IMG/VR virus record: IMGVR_UViG_2711768060_000012
Coordinates: 1-9,363 of that record
DNA: 9,363 nucleotides
Origin: a virus
Taxonomy: Duplodnaviria > Heunggongvirae > Uroviricota > Caudoviricetes
Reading direction: 5' to 3' (one strand)
Shown: positions 1 through 9,363 of the stretch, in pieces
Position numbering within the stretch: position 1 is the first letter of the stretch
Layout of the letters: each line of letters starts with the position of its first letter
Notes under the pieces: model-generated
What the model was told of the DNA's origin: nothing
The model's database searches: none
What the model saw: the letters and a program-made list of their open reading frames with translations, nothing else
Made by a program: the position numbers and the translations under genes

Positions 1-1218
1 ATGAACAAACTGAGCGACACATTGTTAAGAAAACTTCATGGTAAGCCGGCGGAGAAAAATACGTTTTATAGTGATGGCGGAAATCTGAGCGTGAAATATT
101 TAACATCAGGGAAATTGACCTGGTATTTCACTTACAGGGCAGGAACGGGAAGAGGTACGCCACCGGAACGCCTGAAGCTGGGAAATTATCCTGATCTGAG
201 CCTGAAAGCAGCCAGGGAAAAAGCAGCACTGTGTCGCGCATGGCTGGCAGAGGGAAAAAATCCACGCCATGAGCTTAATTACTCCATACAGGAAGCACTA
301 AAGCCGGTAACGGTAGGCGATGCGATCAGCTACTGGCTGGAAATGCACGTAAAGGAAAACCGTGTCGATTACGTATGCCTGAAAAGCCGCCTTAATAATC
401 ACGTCATACAGCACATCGGCAATATGCCACTGGATAAATGCGAGTTACGTCACTGGCTGGCCTGTTTTGACCGGATACGCAAAAAATCACCCGTAACATC
501 TGGCCACATGATGCAGGCGTGCAAACAGGCGCTTAAGTTCTGCCGTAAACGTCGCTACGCAGTCAGTAACGTTCTGGATGATCTCAACGTGGTGGACGTT
601 GGCAAAAAGCCGGGCATAAGCGAACGCGTGCTTAGTAACAAAGAACTGGGCGAATTATTACAGGCGCTGGATAAAAAAATATTCCCGCCCTACTACAGCG
701 CACTAATCCGCCTCCTGATTGTGTTCGGCTGCCGGACCGGAGAACTGAGACTGTCGGAGATCAGGGAGTGGGATTTTAAGGAAATGCTCTGGACAGTACC
801 GAAGGAGCACAGCAAAACGAAGGTCGCCATATTCAGGCCAATACCGGAAAGCATTTTACCGTTCGTCACACAGCTGGTGGAGCAGAACCGACACACAGGG
901 CTATTACTCGGGGAACTGAAACAGGAAGCCAGCGTGTCGCAATACGGCAGATTCACGCACAAAAAATTAAACCATCCGCACTGGTCACTACACGATATAC
1001 GGCGCACGTTTACCACGATGCTGAACGATTTAGGCGTGGATCCGCATATTGTCGAGCAGCTTACCGCTCACCAGATGCCAGGGATGCAGCGAGTCTATAA
1101 CCACTCACGCTATATTGATGCGAAACGTAACGCGCTGGATATGTGGACAGAGCGATTAGAGATACTGGCGGGTGCTCACGAAAACGTAACCACACTGCCA
1201 ATAGCCAGAGAAATATAA
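1..1218 (+). CDS. int: Tyrosine site-specific integrase, P4-type
   Basis: 405-aa ORF. N-terminus (KLTWYFTYRAG...LKLGNYPDLSLKAAREKA) and C-terminus (HDIRRTFTTMLNDLGVDPHIVEQLTAHQ...VYNHSRY) match the P4/CP4-57 integrase pattern, including the HxxR and catalytic Tyr region. Confidence 0.9.
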   Translation: MNKLSDTLLRKLHGKPAEKNTFYSDGGNLSVKYLTSGKLTWYFTYRAGTGRGTPPERLKLGNYPDLSLKAAREKAALCRAWLAEGKNPRHELNYSIQEALKPVTVGDAISYWLEMHVKENRVDYVCLKSRLNNHVIQHIGNMPLDKCELRHWLACFDRIRKKSPVTSGHMMQACKQALKFCRKRRYAVSNVLDDLNVVDVGKKPGISERVLSNKELGELLQALDKKIFPPYYSALIRLLIVFGCRTGELRLSEIREWDFKEMLWTVPKEHSKTKVAIFRPIPESILPFVTQLVEQNRHTGLLLGELKQEASVSQYGRFTHKKLNHPHWSLHDIRRTFTTMLNDLGVDPHIVEQLTAHQMPGMQRVYNHSRYIDAKRNALDMWTERLEILAGAHENVTTLPIAREI

Positions 1219-1244
1219 TTTTTTTCGCGATTTTTCAGGACGTA

Positions 1245-1360
1245 CACAACGTGGAACAACGAGACACAACGACGAACAACGGCGAACAATCTGAAACAAA
1301 TCTGATTATCTATGATTATTTCTGATTAACTCCATATAAGTCTGATTTTCTGGTGATTTA
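1245..1360. repeat. Two 10-bp-phased direct repeat arrays: (A/C)ACAAC x6 (about 1246-1295) then TCTGATT-like x5 (1301-1359)
   Basis: ACAAC pentamers at 1246, 1256, 1266, 1276, 1286(ACAAT) and 1295; TCTGATT/TATGATT/GGTGATT at 1301, 1311, 1321, 1341 and 1353. Strict helical-turn spacing, immediately downstream of the int stop. Confidence 0.6.
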
Positions 1361-1594
1361 CTGTTTTTTTGTACATTGGCGAATCACTCTTAAAAATATG
1401 TAAAAAAGGTGTGAATGTAGAATTTTATGCCTTTGCATCACAATGAATTAAAAGAGTTTTTATTCTCATTACCCCACTTCTGTAAAATGACCGCCGCCAG
1501 TGTTTGCCATTCCATAAACACCCTGACACAATCCGACGCACCACAACACAATAGGACACCAAATAACTCTTTAAGAAATATCAAAGGGGGAATT

Positions 1595-1783
1595 GTGTTA
1601 AGCACAGATCGCTTTATACGTGAAAAAGAATGTCAGCAACTAACAGGCCTGAGCCGTTCATGTCGGTACCGCCTGGAAAAGGCCGGACAATTCCCATCAC
1701 GGCGTAAACTCGGCGGTCGTTCCGTTGGCTGGTCTTTATCCGAAGTTCTGGCATGGAAGGACAGCTGCGAGGCAGTTCACTAA
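1595..1783 (+). CDS. alpA: AlpA-family transcriptional regulator (phage/island activator, MerR-like HTH)
   Basis: The C-terminal 62 codons of track ORF 1427-1783 (VLSTDRFIREKECQQLTGLSRSCRYRLEKAGQFPSRRKLGGRSVGWSLSEVLAWKDS) resemble E. coli AlpA. GTG at 1595 is preceded by AAAGGGGG (1583-1590). The exact start is uncertain and could be an upstream in-frame ATG. Confidence 0.75.
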   Translation: MLSTDRFIREKECQQLTGLSRSCRYRLEKAGQFPSRRKLGGRSVGWSLSEVLAWKDSCEAVH

Positions 1784-1924
1784 TCAGACTGGCGGCATAC
1801 AGCCGCCCCCCATCCACTAACACAGAGATTTAACCATGAAGGCTGGATATACGCCCGAACAGGGGCGGGGGTTCGCTCGTCCTGGTGAAACTAAAAAGCC
1901 ATGTTATCGGGTATTTTCAGGCAT

Positions 1925-1952
1925 AAAAAAAGCGGCCCCGATAAGGAGCCGC
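1925..1952 (-). terminator. Intrinsic terminator, minus-strand oriented
   Basis: On the minus strand GCGGCUCC-UUAUC-GGGGCCGC forms an 8-bp stem (one G-U) followed by U7. The + strand version has a C/A mismatch and no U tract. Confidence 0.55.
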
Positions 1953-1996
1953 CTTTCTGAACAATTAACCTGCTGCACAAAAAATAAATATGAGCA
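1926..1996 (-). ncRNA. Candidate small RNA (~70 nt) between an extended -10 promoter and an intrinsic terminator
   Basis: Minus-strand TGaTATAAT (complement of + 2002-2010), then about 70 nt of U-rich sequence with a CUGCU/AGCAG hairpin, ending in the 1925-1952 terminator. No ORF with an RBS in the interval. Prediction only. Confidence 0.3.
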
Positions 1997-2001
1997 GTGG
2001 G

Positions 2002-2010
2002 ATTATATCA
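2002..2010 (-). promoter_or_regulatory. Extended -10 promoter element (TGnTATAAT) on the minus strand
   Basis: + strand ATTATATCA is the reverse complement of TGATATAAT. The -35 is weak (TTGTGG at non-optimal spacing). Confidence 0.35.
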
Positions 2011-2045
2011 GCCAGGTGACGAAGCGCCACAATTGCCGGATAACA

Positions 2046-2076
2046 GGCAAAACAAAGGCCACCCGCTACGGTGGCC
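2046..2076 (-). terminator. Intrinsic terminator for the leftward RHH-like gene
   Basis: Minus-strand GGCCACC-GUAGCG-GGUGGCC (7-bp stem) followed by UUUGUUUU, about 100 nt downstream of the stop at 2180. Confidence 0.55.
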
Positions 2077-2179
2077 CCTCGACACAAGCTACACGTTATC
2101 CACAACGCAAGAGAGCTGATTACTATGCCGTGATTACATCCGGTTGGCAATGTGATCAGTGTGCTGGCTTGCTGGTGGG

Positions 2180-2359
2180 CTATTCCTGCTCTTTGGCCTT
2201 GCGCCGCTGGCGGCGTTTGATCTCACCACGCATGGCTGTAACGATAAACTGCGCGTCTGTTTCGTTTTCCTCTTTGACCAAATTCATTTCGCTTAAAACT
2301 TCTAGAGGGATTCTAGCCGTTTTTTGTTGTGATTTGTTGTTGGTTGTACCCGTTGGCAT
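2180..2359 (-). CDS. Small basic DNA-binding protein, possibly ribbon-helix-helix fold (59 aa); candidate island regulator
   Basis: Internal ATG (complement of 2357-2359) of track ORF 2180-2536, preceded by a perfect SD AAGGAGG with 6-nt spacer. Product MPTGTTNNKSQQKTARIPLEVLSEMNLVKEENETDAQFIVTAMRGEIKRRQRRKAKEQE has a beta-strand/helix/helix layout and a basic tail. Candidate -10 TATACT at complement of 2391-2396. Confidence 0.55.
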   Translation of the reverse strand: MPTGTTNNKSQQKTARIPLEVLSEMNLVKEENETDAQFIVTAMRGEIKRRQRRKAKEQE

Positions 2360-2400
2360 TACTGGCCTCCTTACTGTTAGGTGGCGTTCAGTATACGTAG

Positions 2401-2471
2401 AAAAAAAAATAAAAAAAGGCTTGAAGTGCAAGTCACCTAAAAGTAGCATAACCTTTAAAGGTGACTTGCAC
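2401..2471. promoter_or_regulatory. A9TA7 tract plus 13-bp perfect inverted repeat (GTGCAAGTCACCT ... AGGTGACTTGCAC, arms 2426-2438 and 2459-2471); operator and/or minus-strand terminator
   Basis: Arms are exact reverse complements separated by 20 bp that contain the palindrome CCTTTAAAGG. On the minus strand the hairpin is followed by a long U tract. On the + strand it overlaps a candidate promoter (-35 TTGAAG 2421-2426, -10 TAGCAT 2444-2449) for the rightward operon. Confidence 0.5.
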
Positions 2472-2552
2472 CTTAAAGACAAAGCCCCGCAAGTGTCGTT
2501 ACCACTCGCAGGGCTTCTAACCACCAACGATAGCAAGATTATCGAGGCAGCT

Positions 2553-2756
2553 ATGAGAAATCATACCACACACCCGCAAGGGCGGGACTCGCACAACCTG
2601 AATAAATACATCTGGCGTTTTATCGCCCTGAGCACGGCACAACCGCGCGTGATTACCATTGAGGCCACCAGCGAACAGGAAGCACGCCAGCAATCCCCGG
2701 CTGGCTGCGTGATGGTATTCGCCGCCCGTATTCGTCAGGAGGTGCGCCATGATTAA
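2553..2756 (+). CDS. Small protein resembling Icd-like host cell division inhibitor family (67 aa)
   Basis: Last 67 codons of track ORF 1836-2756. ATG at 2553 is preceded by GAGG (2544-2547). KYIWRFIALSTAQPRVITIEATSEQEARQ...VFAARIRQ matches my recollection of Icd-like proteins in P4-like islands. The upstream part of the 306-aa ORF looks non-coding. Confidence 0.55.
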   Translation: MRNHTTHPQGRDSHNLNKYIWRFIALSTAQPRVITIEATSEQEARQQSPAGCVMVFAARIRQEVRHD

Positions 2757-2961
2757 TCTGTCACTTACCGACCTTAACCGCGTTCAGTTTCGTGAGAAAT
2801 TCACCGGGCAGCTACTGGTCAATGTGGAGAATGGACGCGTGGTGTGTAATTACCACCTGCCAGATGAATCAATTGTCGCAACAAGGGAATCATTACAGGA
2901 ACTCGCAGAACATGCCGGAATGATTAACGCGAATATTCAGGGGGTGCGCCATGTGCAATAA
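2749..2961 (+). CDS. Hypothetical protein (70 aa)
   Basis: ATG at 2749 is preceded by AGGAGG (2737-2742) and overlaps the upstream stop (translational coupling). No family recognised. Confidence 0.6.
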   Translation: MINLSLTDLNRVQFREKFTGQLLVNVENGRVVCNYHLPDESIVATRESLQELAEHAGMINANIQGVRHVQ

Positions 2962-3418
2962 CACCCATCCGGACGCAGCCGCCGAAGCTATCAAAACACT
3001 GATTGATGCGCTGATTGATATTTCTGTTATCGCGGACAGGGCGCATAAGCACGCCACCAGCGAAACAGAATATGCCGGGGCTTTCGTTCCTCACTCACTG
3101 GCTGTTATGCAGCTTAGCGCCGATATGGCGCTGAATGGGGCTAAAGCAATCCTGATTGCTGATTGTGAAAATGGGGGGGGGGTTATGCGTGATGATCGTT
3201 TTAATGCCCTGAAACAGGAATTTGATGGCGCACCGGAAGATACAGATATTGCGCTGTTATGTGTTGCTGACATGGTAAAAGCTGCATGTTTTTTACTGGA
3301 AACCGCCGAACATTCAGGAACGGGTAGCGATATTCTCAATATTGCGTCGGACTATGCGGAATATGTGGCAGAGGCACGTTACAGAAGAAAATTACCGGAG
3401 GATGTAAGCCATGGATAA
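2951..3418 (+). CDS. Hypothetical acidic protein (155 aa, about 26 D/E versus 12 K/R) containing an in-frame G10 tract
   Basis: ATG at 2951 overlaps the upstream stop. Coherent protein-like sequence on both sides of the G10 run at 3173-3182 (encodes ENGGGV). No family recognised. Confidence 0.65.
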   Translation: MCNNTHPDAAAEAIKTLIDALIDISVIADRAHKHATSETEYAGAFVPHSLAVMQLSADMALNGAKAILIADCENGGGVMRDDRFNALKQEFDGAPEDTDIALLCVADMVKAACFLLETAEHSGTGSDILNIASDYAEYVAEARYRRKLPEDVSHG

Positions 3419-3619
3419 AATCCCTTTCGATGTTCTTATTCATTCTGAGAATGCATTAATCAGGGCGCTTGAATTAAAAACGGTACTGGATGAATTAACC
3501 GAAAATAACACCGAGCGGGGGGGTATTTACTTTCTGCTTTCAGCACTCTGTTAACCCCGGTTATTGATGAATTAAACGCGGTTATGGAAATGCACGACAA
3601 GACCCGCGCAGAGGAATAA
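3411..3619 (+). pseudogene. Small gene (69 codons if corrected) interrupted by a frameshift at a G7 tract (3517-3523)
   Basis: ATG at 3411 with GGAGGA (3397-3402) opens MDKIPFDVLIHSENALIRALELKTVLDELTENNTERGG..., which stops at 3555. The -1/+2 frame opens right after a stop at 3506-3508 and continues YLLSAFSTLLTPVIDELNAVMEMHDKTRAEE to a stop at 3617-3619, just before the next gene. One extra G would fuse the two frames. Confidence 0.45.
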
Positions 3620-3624
3620 AAACC

Positions 3625-3924
3625 ATGAAAAAGAAAATTTCTGGCTTTACTGCCAGCGGCCCCGCTCGGCCTGAAATCCGCCCCGGCGATATTTTCCGGG
3701 ATAACTACGGCGGCACGGTAACGATTAAAAGCGTGGCGGGACGGTGCGTTACTTACCGCCGTGATGGGTACGGCTATGACTGCGTGATGCCTGTTTATCA
3801 GTTCCGGCGTGATTTTTCGCTGGTACAGGCCACACCACGCAGACAGCCCACCAGCAACGCAAAGGCACGGGCAAATATTCAGAAAATGAAAAACATGATT
3901 AACGCATTCAGGGGCACAAAATGA
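3625..3924 (+). CDS. Hypothetical small protein (99 aa), possibly a DUF4222-like prophage protein
   Basis: ATG at 3625 is preceded by GAGGAA. Stop overlaps the helicase start (ATGA at 3921). The IRPGDIFRDNYGGTVTIKSV...RDGYGYDCVMPV motif is tentatively recalled from small prophage proteins. Confidence 0.6.
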   Translation: MKKKISGFTASGPARPEIRPGDIFRDNYGGTVTIKSVAGRCVTYRRDGYGYDCVMPVYQFRRDFSLVQATPRRQPTSNAKARANIQKMKNMINAFRGTK

Positions 3925-5336
3925 AACTGGCACCGAACTTAAAAAAACAGCCACACGACAAAATGACCGAAGTCATTATTTTTGCGGGTAGTGATGCCTG
4001 GGCGCACGCGAAACAATGGCAGGAACAGGACGGGCGACTTGCTGGCGACAACGTGCCACCTGTATGGCTTGGAGACAGCCAGCTTGACGAACTGGCAGAC
4101 CTGAAAATCATCGATGATGGTCGCTATTGTGTCCGGCTGTACAAGGCAGGCCACATCAAGCCGTCAAATATTAATGCCATCGGGCAAAAGCTGGCGGCGG
4201 CAGGTGTACGGGATGCGAATTATTACCCTGAGGGAATGCACAGCCAGAAGCTGGAGAACTGGCACGACTACCTGCAACGGATCCGCGAACAGACAGAGCG
4301 CGGGGAAATACTTACTGACGAGCAATACAGCCAGCGAAAAACCACGCTACCAATGAGCATTGGATCTGCAGGGTACGACACACAGCTTGATTATGTCGTT
4401 AAGGGCGTGATTCCGGCTAATTCATTGTGCAGCACATACGGCGCGAGCGGTTCCTATAAATCGTTCCTCGCGTGTTCCTGGGCGTGTCATGTTGCCACGG
4501 GTCGCCACTGGGGAGGCCGCAGGGTGGCGCATGGTTCGGTGATGTATGTTGTCGGTGAAGGTGGCATTGGTGTCCCCCGCCGTATCAAAGCATGGGAAAT
4601 CGTTAATGATGAACGGGTGGAAAATCTGTACTTGGTAAACCGCCCGATTTTTCCGGCAGTTCCGCTTGATGTCGATGAAATGGTCATCGCTTCCCGCCAG
4701 GTTGAACGGGAAACGGGTAAACCGGTACGCATGATTATTCTGGATACGCTGGCGCGTTGCTTTGGCGGTAATGATGAAAATGACGCGCGGGATATGGGGG
4801 CGTTTATCCGTGGATGTGACGAACTGAAGCGACGCACAGGGGCCACGGTACTGGTGGTTCACCATTCCGGCAAGGATGAAACAAAGGGGGCGCGTGGTTC
4901 CAGTGCATTTCGTGCATCTCTGGACGCTGAATACCGTATTCGCCGGGAAGGTGCAGACAGTGAAGCCCTGGTTATCTCCTGTACCAAAATGAAGGACGCG
5001 GAGGAACTTAAAGAGGCTGCATACGATTTACGCGTGGTGGAGCTTTTTACCGACGCTGACAAGGAGTTAATCACGTCGCTGGTGGTTGTGGATAAGCCGC
5101 GCCCACCTGTTGAACTGGAACGCATCGAGGAAGCCGGGAACAAGACGGAGAATCATGCCGCGCTATGGGGCTGTATCCGTTCACGCACACAGCGCAGCGA
5201 TAAATGCACTATCCCGTTGTTGCGCGATGATATGAAAAAGCTGGGGTATGAGATGAAAAACTTCCGGCGCTGGCTGTACAAGCTGGAAAGAGACGGCGTT
5301 ATCGCTATTGACGGTGATGATGTGCGCCCACTGTAA
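3921..5336 (+). CDS. Replication protein: RepA-like / AAA_25 RecA-fold helicase with an N-terminal domain of unknown type
   Basis: 471-aa ORF. P-loop-like GASGSYKS (4440-4463), Walker B-like VRMIILDTLARCFGG, and LVVHHSGKD typical of RepA/DnaB-type helicases. Followed by an iteron array. Confidence 0.8.
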   Translation: MKLAPNLKKQPHDKMTEVIIFAGSDAWAHAKQWQEQDGRLAGDNVPPVWLGDSQLDELADLKIIDDGRYCVRLYKAGHIKPSNINAIGQKLAAAGVRDANYYPEGMHSQKLENWHDYLQRIREQTERGEILTDEQYSQRKTTLPMSIGSAGYDTQLDYVVKGVIPANSLCSTYGASGSYKSFLACSWACHVATGRHWGGRRVAHGSVMYVVGEGGIGVPRRIKAWEIVNDERVENLYLVNRPIFPAVPLDVDEMVIASRQVERETGKPVRMIILDTLARCFGGNDENDARDMGAFIRGCDELKRRTGATVLVVHHSGKDETKGARGSSAFRASLDAEYRIRREGADSEALVISCTKMKDAEELKEAAYDLRVVELFTDADKELITSLVVVDKPRPPVELERIEEAGNKTENHAALWGCIRSRTQRSDKCTIPLLRDDMKKLGYEMKNFRRWLYKLERDGVIAIDGDDVRPL

Positions 5337-5535
5337 AAAGTGAGGCGCAAAAGTGAGGGGATAGCAGGAACTGAACAAAAAGCAACCGCACCCCTCACTT
5401 TTCAACCTGTATATAGGCTCAAAAGTGAGGAATAAAAAACACATTGAAAAACAACATATTAGAATCACAAAAAAACAATGTTGGAAATCATGTGGGGAGC
5501 TTAAAAAGTGAGGTGAAAAAGTGGGGAATAGTGAG
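5336..5535. repeat. Iteron array, likely replication origin: AAAAGTGAGG repeated 5-6 times with an AT-rich core
   Basis: AAAAGTGAGG at 5336-5345, 5349-5358, 5421-5430 and 5504-5513; degenerate copy 5517-5526; inverted copy CCTCACTTTT at 5393-5402. AT-rich stretch 5431-5490. Directly downstream of the helicase gene. Confidence 0.6.
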
Positions 5536-5537
5536 AA

Positions 5538-5789
5538 ATGACCAGAAAAACCAGAGATAAGACAGCGCCAAAATATCGCGCATTAGACATGACAGAGCAC
5601 GCCTTAAAGGTGGCAATCAGAACGATAGACCGCCATGCCGGAGAAGGATACGCGAAAGCACATCCCGAACTGATAAGCGCATTCATGACCACAGCGGCGG
5701 CAAACTTTGCCACGCTGACAGAGCGGGAGATTGCGGAAGCGGAACAGGTGACAACCATCAACGTTAAAACCGGAGAGCAGACAGCATGA
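5538..5789 (+). CDS. Hypothetical protein (83 aa)
   Basis: ORF with a weak RBS. Stop overlaps the SSB start (ATGA at 5786), suggesting coupling. No family recognised. Confidence 0.5.
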   Translation: MTRKTRDKTAPKYRALDMTEHALKVAIRTIDRHAGEGYAKAHPELISAFMTTAAANFATLTEREIAEAEQVTTINVKTGEQTA

Positions 5790-6208
5790 CAGCACAGATA
5801 GCGGCTTACGGTCGGCTGGTGGCTGACCCTCAGTTAAAGACCACCAGCAAAGGGACACAAATGGCGATGGCGAGTATGGCGGTTCCCCTGCCGTGCAGCC
5901 AGGCAGATGACGGAACGGCGACGATGTGGTTATCCGTCCTGGCGTTTGGCAGACAGGCCGACGCACTGGCAAAACACCACAAAGGCGAACTGGTGAGCGT
6001 GGCGGGTAACATGCAGGTAAGCCAGTGGACAGGCCAGAACGGCGAAGCGCGGCAGGGCTGGCAGGTTATCGCAGACAGCGTAATCAGTGCGCGAACGGTG
6101 CGACCGGGCGGCAAAAAAGGCCAGCAGGGCCAGGCTACTGACGCACTGAACAGGGCAAAACAACAGGCGGGAAATGATGATCCGTACGGGGATAACATAC
6201 CGTTTTAA
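5786..6208 (+). CDS. ssb: Single-stranded DNA-binding protein (SSB, OB-fold)
   Basis: 140 aa. N-terminal OB-fold-like region, Gly/Gln-rich linker (GGKKGQQGQ) and acidic C-terminal tip ...DDPYGDNIPF, resembling the SSB DDDIPF tail. Confidence 0.8.
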   Translation: MTAQIAAYGRLVADPQLKTTSKGTQMAMASMAVPLPCSQADDGTATMWLSVLAFGRQADALAKHHKGELVSVAGNMQVSQWTGQNGEARQGWQVIADSVISARTVRPGGKKGQQGQATDALNRAKQQAGNDDPYGDNIPF

Positions 6209-6224
6209 GCAACGAGTGACAGAA

Positions 6225-6248
6225 GCCGGGGTTTTTCCCGGTTTTTTT
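6225..6248 (+). terminator. Intrinsic terminator after ssb
   Basis: CCGGG-GTTTTT-CCCGG hairpin (6226-6241) followed by T7 (6242-6248). Confidence 0.6.
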
Positions 6249-6295
6249 ATGGGTCCTTCCTGAAAAATGGAACACCGGGGGGATGCGGACGCGCA
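6242..6295 (+). repeat. 54-bp direct repeat, copy 1 (TTTTTTTATGGGTCCTTCCTGAAAAATGGAACACCGGGGGGATGCGGACGCGCA)
   Basis: Identical to 8713-8766. Starts at the T tract of the ssb terminator. Confidence 0.9.
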
Positions 6296-6476
6296 GAAAA
6301 CGGCTGGTTTTTGCATTTTCATGGTGGCGGCAGCATGTGTGATAATTAATTGATAATTAAAAATTATTTCTGTTTTCACCTGTACAATCTTTTTTCTCCC
6401 CCTGTCATCAGACCAGTTTGCAATTAATTGAAATATATAAACAAATTTGTTTTTCACCTGCCAAATGGAGCTGCCT

Positions 6477-6572
6477 ATGTCAAATGTGATTGGGATTGGT
6501 GATGCTTATCACTGGCACACAAAAATGAATATTGCATATTTTGCAATGCAATTGATCATCATTGCATTTTGA
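6477..6572 (+). CDS. Candidate 31-codon small ORF / leader peptide (MSNVIGIGDAYHWHTKMNIAYFAMQLIIIAF)
   Basis: ATG at 6477 is preceded by GGAG (6467-6470). Hydrophobic C-terminus. Overlaps the dyad-rich control region and could equally be non-coding. Confidence 0.2.
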   Translation: MSNVIGIGDAYHWHTKMNIAYFAMQLIIIAF

Positions 6573-6616
6573 TCAACACTGCACACTTCAAATATCAGTC
6601 TGAAACGAGGTGTTAC

Positions 6617-6820
6617 GTGAACGAAAAGAAAGCTGTATCGGTTTATCTCGACAATGAAACGGCGCTTGCCCTGTACCGTTTGCGCGAAGATATTCGCAAG
6701 AAAAATGCAGAAACGGGAATGGATCTTCCCACGCCAACAGTCGGCTGGCTTGCCCGTTCATTGTTGCGTCAAAGCCTGGGAATTAAGGCAGACAAAAAAG
6801 ATTTGCCTCATGAGGGGTAA
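6617..6820 (+). CDS. Small ribbon-helix-helix-like protein (67 aa) upstream of the capsid gene
   Basis: GTG at 6617 is preceded by GAGG (6607-6610) inside track ORF 6569-6820. KAVSVYLDNETALALYRLREDIRKK fits the RHH pattern of a beta-strand followed by a helix. Confidence 0.5.
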   Translation: MNEKKAVSVYLDNETALALYRLREDIRKKNAETGMDLPTPTVGWLARSLLRQSLGIKADKKDLPHEG

Positions 6821-6825
6821 GGTTG

Positions 6826-8667
6826 ATGGAAATTTCATTGTATGAGCCAATCGAAGGCGTAACCGCAAGACAGTTCCGCGATTCACTTATGGCTGCAAAA
6901 GGCCCGGTTACGGTTGCCATAAACAGCGGTGGCGGAAATGTAACTGACGGCATGGCGATGTTTAACGCCCTGAGAACGTACAAAGGCCACACGGTCGCAA
7001 GAATCGACGGTATCGCCGCATCAATGGCTACCATTGTTGCGCTCGGTGCCCGGCGTGTCGTGATGGCTGATAACGGCTGGTGGATGATCCATAACCCGTG
7101 GGGCGTTTTTGTTGGTGAATCGGAAGATCTCCGCAAAAAAGCCGACATGATGGAAAAAATCGGCAAGGCAATGCTTGATACCTACGTTGCCAAAACCGGA
7201 TTACCGGAATCAGAAATCAAAGCCATGATGGATGCTGAAACATGGCTGACGGCTGAGGAAGCGAAAGAAAAAGGATTTATTGATGAAATTTATCCGGCAG
7301 AGGGACAGGCATTAGCCATGGCCCCTGGTTGCGGATCACTGGTAGAGAAATTTACCAGAACGCCGGAAAGCATCATCGCATCGATGAAGAAAGGCGACAC
7401 GGGATCAGCAAACGAAAGAGAGAAGCGAAAAAAAGAAGCCGACGTTTTGTTTGCTTACTGGAAGAATTCTTCGTATGAGTGGTTGCCAGGAATTGTTGAA
7501 GAATTTATCAGCGGTTCCATCACTGCCGAAGAAGCACGTAAAAAACACTTAGAAAAACTGGCGGAAGAGACAACGCCGTGCGCAGGACCAGGAGCAATGA
7601 ACATGTATGCAGGTAACGGTAATATTGTTGGGGATTCAGTAAAAGCGGCGCTTATGGCACGCAGTGGACTGGCAGATGTGGAAAAAGATAACCGCTATAA
7701 CGGTTATTCATTGCGGGAACTGGCGCGCGCTTCTCTGGTGGATCGTGGGGTAAGCGGCATTCCCGGTAATCCGCTGGGCATGGTCGGAATGGCGTTTACT
7801 CACAGCAGTAGTGATTTTGGCGGCGTTCTTGCGGATGTGGCGCATAAATCATTACTGAAAGGCTGGGAAGATTCACCGGAGACGTTCCACGCCTGGACGA
7901 AAAAAGGCACTCTGACAGATTTTAAGGTTGCCCATCGTGTTGGTATGGATGGTTTTAAATCTTTGCGAAAAGTTTTACCAGGCAGTGAATACAAATACGC
8001 GTCCACGTCCGATCGCAGCGAGCCAATTGCACTGGCAACTTATGGCGAACTGTTCAGCATAGATCGCCAGGCAATCATCAATGACGATATGAGTGCGCTA
8101 ACTTCAATCCCCCAGCAAATGGGGGCAGCAGCAAGCCGCACAGTCGGAGATCTGGTTTATGCCGTTCTCGTGGCTAATCAGAGGATGGGCGATAAAAACC
8201 CGCTCTTTGATGCGAAACACAGCAATCTGATTAACAGCGAACTTGATATTCCAGGCCTGAGCGCAGCCCGTAAAGCTATGCGTATGCAAAAAAATAATGC
8301 TGGTGCTGTACTGAATATTCCGCCTCGTTTCCTGTTAGTTCCGGTAGAACTGGAAGACAGAGCAACCCAGCTTATTCGTTCTACGTCGCTACCAGACGCG
8401 CAGAACAGCGGTGTGTTTAATCCATACAATGATGCTCTGACAGTAATCACAGAAGCGCGGCTGGATGCCGACAGCGTGAAATCCTGGTATCTGCTTGCTG
8501 GTCAGGGAAGTGATACAATCGAAGTCGCTTATCTCGATGGTATTGATACCCCGTACCTGGAACAGCAGCAGGGCTTTACGGTTGATGGCGTTACTTTCAA
8601 AGTGCGCATTGATGCCGGAGTTTCTCCCCTGGACTGGCGCGGGATGGTTAAGTCATCAGGTGGCTAA
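6826..8667 (+). CDS. Prohead protease (ClpP/S14-like) fused to major capsid protein (HK97-fold)
   Basis: N-terminus AINSGGGNVTDGMAMFNALRTYKGHTVARIDGIAASMATIVALGARRVVMADNGWWMIHNPWG has ClpP-like Ser/His motifs. The long C-terminal domain resembles HK97-family capsid proteins. ATG at 6826; the track start at 6823 is TTG. Confidence 0.8.
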   Translation: MEISLYEPIEGVTARQFRDSLMAAKGPVTVAINSGGGNVTDGMAMFNALRTYKGHTVARIDGIAASMATIVALGARRVVMADNGWWMIHNPWGVFVGESEDLRKKADMMEKIGKAMLDTYVAKTGLPESEIKAMMDAETWLTAEEAKEKGFIDEIYPAEGQALAMAPGCGSLVEKFTRTPESIIASMKKGDTGSANEREKRKKEADVLFAYWKNSSYEWLPGIVEEFISGSITAEEARKKHLEKLAEETTPCAGPGAMNMYAGNGNIVGDSVKAALMARSGLADVEKDNRYNGYSLRELARASLVDRGVSGIPGNPLGMVGMAFTHSSSDFGGVLADVAHKSLLKGWEDSPETFHAWTKKGTLTDFKVAHRVGMDGFKSLRKVLPGSEYKYASTSDRSEPIALATYGELFSIDRQAIINDDMSALTSIPQQMGAAASRTVGDLVYAVLVANQRMGDKNPLFDAKHSNLINSELDIPGLSAARKAMRMQKNNAGAVLNIPPRFLLVPVELEDRATQLIRSTSLPDAQNSGVFNPYNDALTVITEARLDADSVKSWYLLAGQGSDTIEVAYLDGIDTPYLEQQQGFTVDGVTFKVRIDAGVSPLDWRGMVKSSGG

Positions 8668-8688
8668 TACACAATCAGGCATGTTATG

Positions 8689-8720
8689 TTTTTTTTGCGG
8701 CCTTCGGGCCGCTTTTTTTA
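8689..8720. terminator. Bidirectional intrinsic terminator after the capsid gene
   Basis: T8 - GCGGCC-TTCG-GGCCGC - T7: perfect 6-bp GC stem with a tetraloop, flanked by T tracts on both sides. Confidence 0.65.
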
Positions 8721-8766
8721 TGGGTCCTTCCTGAAAAATGGAACACCGGGGGGATGCGGACGCGCA
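8713..8766 (+). repeat. 54-bp direct repeat, copy 2
   Basis: Perfect match to 6242-6295. Starts at the T tract of the capsid terminator. Confidence 0.9.
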
Positions 8767-8880
8767 TAAATCGAGAGATTTTTGATATTTTATGCGTGCA
8801 GCAGCATAAGTTTAATGCTTTGATTTTTAACATTATTGATTTGTTTTGTTGAAAAAGCGACCGTGCAGTGAGGTGGTAAA

Positions 8881-9363
8881 GTGGAACTGAGCAAAATGCA
8901 GGTTAATGTCTCACAATTGGCAGACCTGGTAGGCATGAATCGAAATCTTGTTTCACGCCGTTTGCGTGAGCTGGAGCTTGTTGGCGGGAATGGTGAGAAT
9001 CTTAAATTGTATGAACTCGGTCCGGCACTTCAGGCACTACTGACCCCATCAATGAAAGAAAATGGTGAAATGTCACCACAGGATCGGAAAGCCTGGTATC
9101 AGTCAGAAAATGAAAGGCTGAAATTTGAAGCAGCTTCACGTGAATTACTCCCTGTCGAAGAGGTGGCCCGTGAATATTCATCTCTGGCTAAAGCCGTGGT
9201 CATGGTGCTGGAAACGTTACCGGATATTCTTGAGCGCGATTGCGCTCTCCAGCCTTCTGCAGTCATGCGAGTACAACGCATTATTGATGATCTACGTGAT
9301 GAAATGGCGAGAAAGATAGCAGAAAGCGATTCAGATAATGGCTGGCCTGCATGTGCAAGATGA
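8881..9363 (+). CDS. Terminase small subunit, lambda Nu1-like
   Basis: MQVNVSQLADLVGMNRNLVSRRLRELEL...NLKLYELGPALQAL parallels the Nu1 N-terminal wHTH (VNKKQLADIFGASIRTIQNWQEQGMP...NEVLYDSAAVIKWY). Start is either GTG 8881 (GAGGTGG upstream) or ATG 8896. Stop coincides with the window end. Confidence 0.75.
   Translation: MELSKMQVNVSQLADLVGMNRNLVSRRLRELELVGGNGENLKLYELGPALQALLTPSMKENGEMSPQDRKAWYQSENERLKFEAASRELLPVEEVAREYSSLAKAVVMVLETLPDILERDCALQPSAVMRVQRIIDDLRDEMARKIAESDSDNGWPACAR

Follow-up and report, generated by a model that had tools for sequence, protein, structure and literature searches.

The window analysed here, the whole stretch of 9,363 nucleotides taken from the IMG/VR virus record IMGVR_UViG_2711768060_000012 (positions 1 to 9,363 of that record), is a capsid-forming PICI (cf-PICI) with the gene layout of EcCIEDL933. 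Besides int and alpA it has a replication module and encodes a prohead protease and a major capsid protein of its own, as is characteristic of such islands (Table 1). AlpA is the master activator of Gram-negative PICIs and cf-PICIs and is switched on by helper phages. A candidate small RNA (sRNA) unit is flanked by the 3' ends of alpA and of a gene of the ylcI/ynfO family. As the last, 3'-terminal member of the leftward ylcI operon, it is convergent with alpA. The ATG of the ylcI-family gene is preceded, at a distance of 7 nt, by GGAGG, and homologues of this gene were found in 11 genera-level loci. On the other side of the unit, alpA is followed by just a hairpin without U tract (1791-1807), and no U-tract terminator was found between the alpA stop codon and T2, the terminator of the candidate sRNA.

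Table 1. Features of the window, together with the corresponding features of two reference genomes. Positions are those of the window unless an accession is given; all features of the sRNA unit are predicted.
Feature	Position	Strand	Remarks
Tyrosine integrase gene, int	1-1218		
alpA (62 aa)	1595-1783	+	Pfam PF05930, E 3e-18; convergent with the sRNA unit
Stop-free frame, 306 codons	1836-2756	+	from just past alpA into the icd-like gene
Intrinsic terminator T2	1925-1952	-	stem-loop 1952-1932 plus U7 1931-1925
Predicted sRNA, ~71 nt	1925-1995	-	start near G1995, placed from the -10; 3' end in the U tract
Conserved box GCAGCAGGTTAATTGTTCAGAAAGG	1952-1976	-	adjoins the terminator; unpaired in the predicted fold
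Weak 5' stem-loop (CUGCUCAUA...UGUG-CAGCAG)	1970-1997	-	dG -4.4, z -3.5 in the window
Extended -10 TGaTATAAT (TGATATAAT)	2002-2010	-	candidate sRNA promoter element
Spacer between T1 and the -10	2011-2053	-	conserved; block TTTGTTTTGCCTGTTATCCGGCAATTGTGGCGCTTCG nearly invariant in family 1
Intrinsic terminator T1	2045-2079	-	ends the ylcI transcript; reported by the terminator scan
Promoter-like site TTGCCA-17-CATAGT	2122-2150	-	scan match; upstream of T1
ylcI/ynfO-family gene (59 aa)	2180-2359	-	NCBIfam NF041551, E 2e-17; the RHH-like gene of the original prediction
Icd-like gene	2553-2756	+	NF033153
Replication module			DUF4222, RepA-like AAA_25 helicase, SSB
ClpP-like prohead protease/major capsid fusion			NF045540, E 7e-223
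sRNA homologue in Sakai (family 4)	NC_002695.2 1596818-1596922	-	in Sp7, inside annotated CDS ECs_1576
EDL933 island (L188)	NZ_CP008957.1 1680329-1694760		

Promoter, terminators and predicted fold of the candidate sRNA

The original prediction had placed a strong extended -10 element, TGaTATAAT, on the minus strand. The match is perfect (2010-2002), and TGNTATAAT occurs only at this site in the whole window, the number expected in 9.4 kb being 0.24. Both strands of the window together contain three extended -10 elements in which five or more of the six positions match, this one included. Within the near-invariant spacer that separates T1 from the -10 lies a perfect inverted repeat on the minus strand, TTGCC(2050-2046)-N8-GGCAA(2037-2033), which is located roughly at the -35 position and may be a protein-binding site. 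Farther upstream, the promoter-like site TTGCCA-17-CATAGT keeps both of its hexamers among relatives, with a differing spacer sequence, and is homologous to the sRNA promoter TTGCCC-17-TATCAT of family 4 (described below), the leading sequence CATTGCCCACCAGCC being common to both. The segment 2045-2150 of the minus strand may encode a second RNA of ~70 nt ending at T1, or its promoter-like site may be a decayed copy of an ancestral promoter.

T2 follows the -10 at a distance of ~50 nt on the minus strand. Its hairpin consists of the stem GCGGCUCC/GGGGCCGC and the loop UUAUC and has a predicted energy of -21.6 kcal/mol as minus-strand RNA versus -13.1 kcal/mol as plus-strand RNA. In the plus orientation the G-U pairs turn into A-C mismatches and the tail reads CUUUCUG; the U tract is present on the minus strand alone. 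Since both the stronger hairpin and the U tract belong to the minus strand, T2 is orientation-specific, in agreement with the original prediction. T1 has energies of -18.5 kcal/mol on the minus strand versus -14.3 kcal/mol on the plus strand, and a compensatory variant in which GGCCACC/GGUGGCC is changed to GGCGACC/GGUCGCC (a C-G to G-C swap) was found in L002 and L025. As the ylcI transcript is ended by T1 before the candidate promoter is reached, the sRNA unit is isolated on both sides in the window.

An RNA of 77 nt covering the unit folds with -30.8 kcal/mol (z = -5.6). The internal hairpin that had been predicted for the transcript is present in the window, but it is weak and is not kept in relatives: in most of them it is absent or not significant, with z values from -3.5 to +0.8 across the families. 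GGUUAAUUGUUCA, which is unpaired in the predicted fold, stands directly 5' of the T2 hairpin, and the 3' part of the RNA shows a feature of Hfq-dependent sRNAs, namely a terminator with a U7 tail that follows a single-stranded A/U-rich stretch.

The interval had also been said to contain no open reading frame equipped with a ribosome-binding site. Indeed, there is no minus-strand ATG between the sRNA promoter and the terminator, and the sole GTG frame in this segment has no Shine-Dalgarno sequence and is not conserved. The variable alignment columns in 1925-2150 are distributed 34/35/30 over the three codon positions (in the frame of either strand), and no protein-level purifying selection acts on the interval. 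It is extremely unlikely that the minus-strand ORF 2150-1965 (61 aa) encodes a small hydrophobic protein resembling type I toxins. In the window it would yield a strikingly hydrophobic peptide, and 12 nt separate its stop codon from T2, but it would have to start at a TTG without Shine-Dalgarno sequence and it crosses both T1 and the sRNA promoter. This candidate was rejected, as stop codons interrupt most of its homologues (L017, L018, L001, L021, L022, L002 and others), and no conserved small hydrophobic toxin ORF, as expected of a type I toxin-antitoxin system, was found.

Conservation of the unit across related islands

A megablast search with the segment 1780-2420 gave matches in 606 of 5426 complete E. 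coli genomes. With 1900-2180 as the blastn query, 1207 genomes were matched at least in part and 158 of the 5426 over at least 80% of the query, and both searches taken together located copies at up to five to six places per genome. The shorter segment 1909-1976 recurs in other island variants (blastn). Beyond the chromosomes, four E. coli plasmid records match the unit, and no homologue of it was found by BLAST in phage genomes. Many of the alignments begin or end exactly at 1922, where the U tract of T2 ends, and beyond this point identity falls from 0.95 to 0.48. Judged from the alignments, T2 marks a recombination junction between the alpA-side and the ylcI-side modules.

A set of 171 loci was fetched via the neighbouring YlcI protein, so that the RNA itself was not selected for. 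A profile search found the sRNA unit in 62 of these loci, and likewise in all 14 E. coli loci that had been retrieved by DNA match. The unit is located directly after ylcI or after one or two extra small leftward genes, and in related islands it faces alpA or a BRO-N gene; with neighbours varying in this manner, it behaves as a module. The 51 distinct unit sequences form five families, the 5' parts of which cannot be aligned with each other. Their promoters read TGaTATAAT in family 1 (this window), TTCACT-17-TATAAT in family 2 (L008, Escherichia ruysiae), TTCACA-17-TAAAAT in family 3 (L026), TTGCCC-17-TATCAT in family 4 (O157:H7 Sakai and EDL933, Nissle 1917) and TGgTATCAT in family 5 (L014, Dryocola). 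All five families keep the -10 hexamer at the aligned position, the box and the terminator; a -35 at 17 nt is present in three of them and the TG extension in two, and the unalignable stretch between the -10 and the box measures 25-37 nt.

Within family 1 the mean pairwise identity of the -10 is 0.993 (33 unique sequences), versus 0.84-0.89 in its flanks; the box has a mean identity of 0.92, the 5' domain of 0.84, and the value right after the U tract is 0.48. Across the five families the mean identity is 0.84 in the box and 0.59 in the 5' domain, and the consensus of the 24-nt box reads GCAGYAGGTTAATTGTTCAsAAAGG. RNAalifold, run on a MAFFT alignment, recovered only 5 pairs and thereby just a portion of the terminator, because the alignment had misplaced the indel that distinguishes the two terminator variants; it was uninformative on the 5' domain. 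These two variants of the T2 stem, GCGGCUCC/GGGGCCGC and GCGCUCC/GGGGCGC, differ by the loss of one base from each arm. Promoter and terminator, whose lack of conservation in related elements the original prediction had named as a refuting outcome, are kept in the five families, the two-sided stem deletion included. Since promoter, terminator and box are conserved in five families and this conservation ends at the U tract, comparative analysis makes a discrete, selected small-RNA gene in the interval well supported. That a discrete RNA is made from it appears likely on the same grounds, and this conserved RNA is probably a real regulator, of which we found no description in the literature.

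The same data bear on the alternative that the RNA product is functionless and that the unit, placed where two convergent modules meet, is a tandem terminator or insulator, with a promoter that causes at most transcriptional interference against polymerases arriving from alpA. The unit is found exactly at the mosaic boundary, its 5' part is free to vary and its 5' hairpin is not conserved, and in the family-4 islands, which have no T1, T2 also ends the leftward operon, all of which would suit an insulator. However, a -10 that is kept in five families, each time with either a TG extension or a -35 spaced by 17 nt, is hard to explain without selection for transcription, and the box is conserved beyond what a terminator needs. 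We regard this alternative as unlikely.

A stop-free frame opposite the candidate sRNA

The original prediction missed a frame of 306 codons on the plus strand. The plus strand is open from 1821 (ATG at 1836) to the icd stop codon at 2756, and the frame passes antisense through ylcI, both terminators and the sRNA, the latter being antisense to its codons 30-54. The presence of a conserved frame without stops opposite the sRNA alters the choice of the most likely mechanism. An Icd-like match was present in 141 loci. Upstream of icd, the stop-free run in its frame has a median length of 258 codons in these loci and reaches at least 150 codons in 118 of them; in the other two frames the median is 7 codons and the longest run 100. 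In the 115 loci that have an AlpA match too, the gap between alpA and icd has a median length of 1129 nt, and in 63 of them at least 90% of this gap is stop-free in the icd frame. In the icd phase none of the 51 unit variants contains a stop, whereas the other two phases average 3.5 and 2.6 stops.

The open frame was seen in L001-L005, in L017-L025 and in most of L026-L185, and deletions or replacements among relatives keep it open. It shares third codon positions with ylcI and, according to arithmetic on the annotated coordinates, with other leftward genes in L005, L018, L019 and L024. Its amino-acid sequence is not conserved and codon periodicity is absent. We read this as selection that would act on the openness of the frame and not on a protein sequence; such openness would be explained most simply if ribosomes translated the rightward transcripts through the antisense unit.

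It is very unlikely that the interval instead simply codes for a genuine plus-strand protein of 306 aa, of the kind called 'host cell division inhibitor Icd-like protein' at NCBI, and that the minus-strand signals are incidental. Such a protein would agree with the open frame in the 51 unit variants and with the long runs upstream of icd in the 141 loci, and 2323 database proteins of 250-490 aa match the plus frame, many of them named Icd-like. Yet only residues 258-301 of the frame match a family (Icd-like, NF033153), there is no third-position excess of substitutions and the amino-acid sequence changes freely, and the frame runs antisense through a bona fide ylcI and through two terminators with compensatory changes. 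The open frame is moreover compatible with an antisense RNA gene.

The Sakai element annotated as 'prophage Sp7; untypable' is a cf-PICI (NC_002695.2 1594711-1610171, L187). In Sakai and in EDL933 a long plus-strand ORF (ECs_1576 and RS32265, respectively) is annotated where related islands have leftward genes, and no leftward gene is annotated there. Annotations of 250-490-aa 'Icd-like' proteins, which resemble Icd in their last ~45 residues only, thus hide ylcI, leftward genes and the RNA unit in some genomes.

A putative second leftward promoter inside icd

A further extended -10, TGgTATGAT, is located at 2560-2568 on the minus strand within the first codons of icd, and 89 loci retain it in the form TGGTATGAT or TGGTATAAT. 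The leader of ~160 nt predicted to follow it (2395-2553, minus strand) is antisense to the icd ribosome-binding site and consists of two strong hairpins and then a long U run (dG -57.4, z -7.1), a structure that is weaker on the plus strand. This leader could be an attenuator placed before ylcI or an antisense RNA directed against icd.

Published expression data on relatives

In the RNase E CLASH data for Sakai, the entries listed contain a minus-strand intramolecular hybrid at 1597288-1597367, and the leftward arm is therefore transcribed. The hybrid maps to the equivalent of the ~160-nt leader. At the Sakai homologue of the sRNA, no read is found among the CLASH entries listed. The Hfq-CRAC orphan peaks given for Sakai include none in Sp7; the homologue lies inside ECs_1576 and was thus possibly excluded from that list. 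For EDL933, in which the family-4 homologue has TATCAT at 1,682,352-47 (NZ_CP008957.1, minus strand) and a predicted start near 1,682,340, the canonical table of Cappable-seq starts gives one start for int (1680288) and three for alpA (1681879, 1681887 and 1681896) (PMC10469882). The alpA start 1681879 was detected in most conditions of that table, alpA starts being seen in most of the uninduced ones, and the table has no start for the long ORF or for icd (PMC10469882). Taken as listed, the Hfq-CRAC orphan peaks, the CLASH entries and the canonical EDL933 start table give no direct evidence for a transcript of the sRNA. The literature that we found on PICIs and cf-PICIs, EcCIEDL933 included, describes no small RNA, RNA regulator or island repressor, and no description of the sRNA was found in the literature on ylcI/ynfO or CP-933C, nor by searching for the sequence string.

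Comparison with known RNA families and systems

A cmscan search of the whole window against Rfam at E <= 10 returned five weak matches, none of them to C4 or IsrK. The only one overlapping the unit, Atu_C8, was rejected, as it reached 20.7 bits against a gathering score of 50 and was driven by the terminator. The original prediction had drawn an analogy with the CI RNA of phage P4, of which only the logic can be retained. In P1/P7 c4 and P4 CI, as in the island, a small RNA is located in a regulatory region together with an icd-type gene and a Vis/AlpA-type regulator, and the role expected by likeness to P1 c4 and P4 CI would be the silencing of a lytic or replication operon by RNA pairing. 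The P4, P1 and N15 systems, with C4 and IsrK as structural homologues of P4 CI and seqA, have been summarised (PMC3632133). Membership in the C4 family (RF01695) is contradicted by the missing covariance-model match and by strand and position: the candidate lies on the strand opposite to icd, ~550 nt upstream of it, and not in the icd leader. c4 and CI are processed from a leader that belongs to the controlled operon and share its strand. The candidate sRNA has a promoter and a terminator of its own, which argues for a primary transcript.

By construction, the closest systems are cis-encoded 3'-end antisense sRNAs such as GadY and 3'-end sRNAs that have a promoter to themselves, such as DapZ and MicL. 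GadY is a cis-encoded sRNA opposite the gadX 3' UTR and the gadX-gadW junction, and its pairing stabilises gadX mRNA. Like GadY, the candidate is a short RNA with its own promoter and terminator that is convergent at the 3' end of a regulator gene, opposite a region without effective terminator after alpA, and its pairing with a polycistronic transcript, at the place where the regulator adjoins the downstream genes, would be perfect. Stabilisation is the outcome there, whereas we propose repression of read-through here, and the two RNAs are not homologous. The likeness to DapZ and MicL is seen in the family-4 islands, where the -35 falls within the final codons of the gene upstream and the sRNA uses the operon terminator as well; in the window, by contrast, T1 separates the sRNA from the ylcI mRNA, and again there is no homology.

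A parallel to the stop-free frame is offered by the PLL-vis-eta arrangement of P4, in which translation through the immunity region reportedly protects late transcripts from termination. There too, a Vis/AlpA-family gene is followed by an open frame that runs across an RNA-based regulatory region into the replication operon, but the regulatory RNA of P4 is on the same strand, whereas the frame described here traverses, in antisense, a convergent unit made up of a protein gene and an sRNA. More unusual than the sRNA itself may be the stop-free corridor and the second leftward promoter within icd. Finally, AgvB, AsxR and other EcOnc RNAs of EHEC are Hfq sRNAs of lambdoid prophages (PMC4104026). 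The candidate resembles these prophage sRNAs in size (50-80 nt), horizontal acquisition, the variable 5' and conserved 3' parts and the same relative position (PMC4104026); it differs in that they are lambdoid, in that no peak is listed for the Sakai cf-PICI Sp7, and in the lack of sequence similarity.

Possible function of the sRNA

The reading that we put forward, tentatively and with somewhat less than an even chance in its favour, is that the sRNA acts in cis as an antisense brake on rightward read-through. The extended -10 promoter would fire towards alpA and give a transcript of ~70 nt that ends at T2, which works on the minus strand only. This RNA would consist of a variable, largely unstructured 5' part, the conserved A/U-rich box, the terminator hairpin and the U tail. 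Rightward int/alpA transcripts would have to cross the interval, because alpA has no terminator and T2 is weak in the plus orientation, and they would carry the stop-free frame into icd and the replication genes. The sRNA, or possibly its transcription itself, would brake this read-through in cis: pairing with the rightward RNA might lead to its cleavage or to uncoupled translation, or alternatively the rightward transcript might be blocked or met by a collision. As a result, basal transcription of alpA, of the kind detected in uninduced EDL933, in the absence of a helper phage would leave icd and the replication genes off. Production of the RNA, its pairing, the consequence of the pairing and the read-through itself are steps that we infer from the observed signals, their conservation and their geometry.

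Several observations are not easily reconciled with such a brake. A purely cis-acting antisense RNA needs no conserved box, so that the box suggests a target in trans, a partner protein or a function at the DNA level. Box and terminator stand at the mosaic junction, and their conservation may come partly from recombination; the stop-free constraint on the opposite strand may add to it. Furthermore, the sRNA would pair with codons 30-54 of the plus frame and not with its start, and the Sakai homologue has neither a listed Hfq-CRAC orphan peak nor a place among the CLASH entries listed.

A rival reading is a trans-acting, chaperone-dependent sRNA, in which the box would be the seed or a module for Hfq or ProQ and the target would reside in the helper phage, the host or co-resident islands; in our estimate it is rather unlikely. 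Hfq classically binds RNAs that end, on the 3' side, in a single-stranded A/U-rich stretch, then a hairpin and then a U tail. The 3' part of the candidate fits this arrangement, the box is conserved over five families while the rest of the RNA varies, and up to five to six copies occur in a genome. A 13-bp match (with 3-4 G-U pairs) to the start codon of the ORF that begins at 2749 also recurs in L116, L098 and L051. The start region of this post-icd ORF (2749-2761, plus strand), which reads ATGATTAATCTGT here and ATGATTAACCTGT in those three loci, can pair with the sRNA box, and the score of this pairing is no better than that of chance matches elsewhere. The search for complementary sequences suggested by the original prediction, carried out by duplex folding and ungapped pairing scores in the window and related loci, gave nothing above background, and inspection by eye of the translation starts of icd and alpA showed no notable complementarity to the sRNA. 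A trans role is disfavoured by this lack of complementarity, by the absence of similarity in phage genomes, by the Hfq-CRAC orphan peaks, none of which is listed in Sakai Sp7 (where the homologue may have been left out as part of a CDS), and by the fact that the seeds of Hfq-dependent sRNAs are more often located in the 5' part.

An extended version of the cis brake, improbable as it may be, would make the sRNA one half of an undescribed Gram-negative PICI circuit, in which it would act as a brake on a translated corridor frame of 250-400 codons together with the second leftward RNA that starts inside icd. Rightward alpA transcripts would then reach icd and the replication genes only by translation through the stop-free frame, and the conserved box would let the sRNAs of co-resident islands cross-silence one another. 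Induction would be set by the balance of alpA-driven, translation-coupled read-through against antisense RNA and not by a protein repressor. Lying directly against the 3' end of alpA, a conserved sRNA gene readily suggests itself as a candidate for the negative element that is still missing in PICIs, and the frame that is held open from alpA to icd makes the model concretely testable. New in this group of elements, for which no RNA regulator was found described, would be the small RNA encoded by the island.

A minor point concerns the detection of terminators. The consensus terminator scan omits T2 although T2 meets its stated rules, an artefact of the tool that likely arises because pairs between the A tract and the U tract extend the stem and use up the T run. 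Such an omission matters whenever terminator scans of this kind serve as negative evidence.
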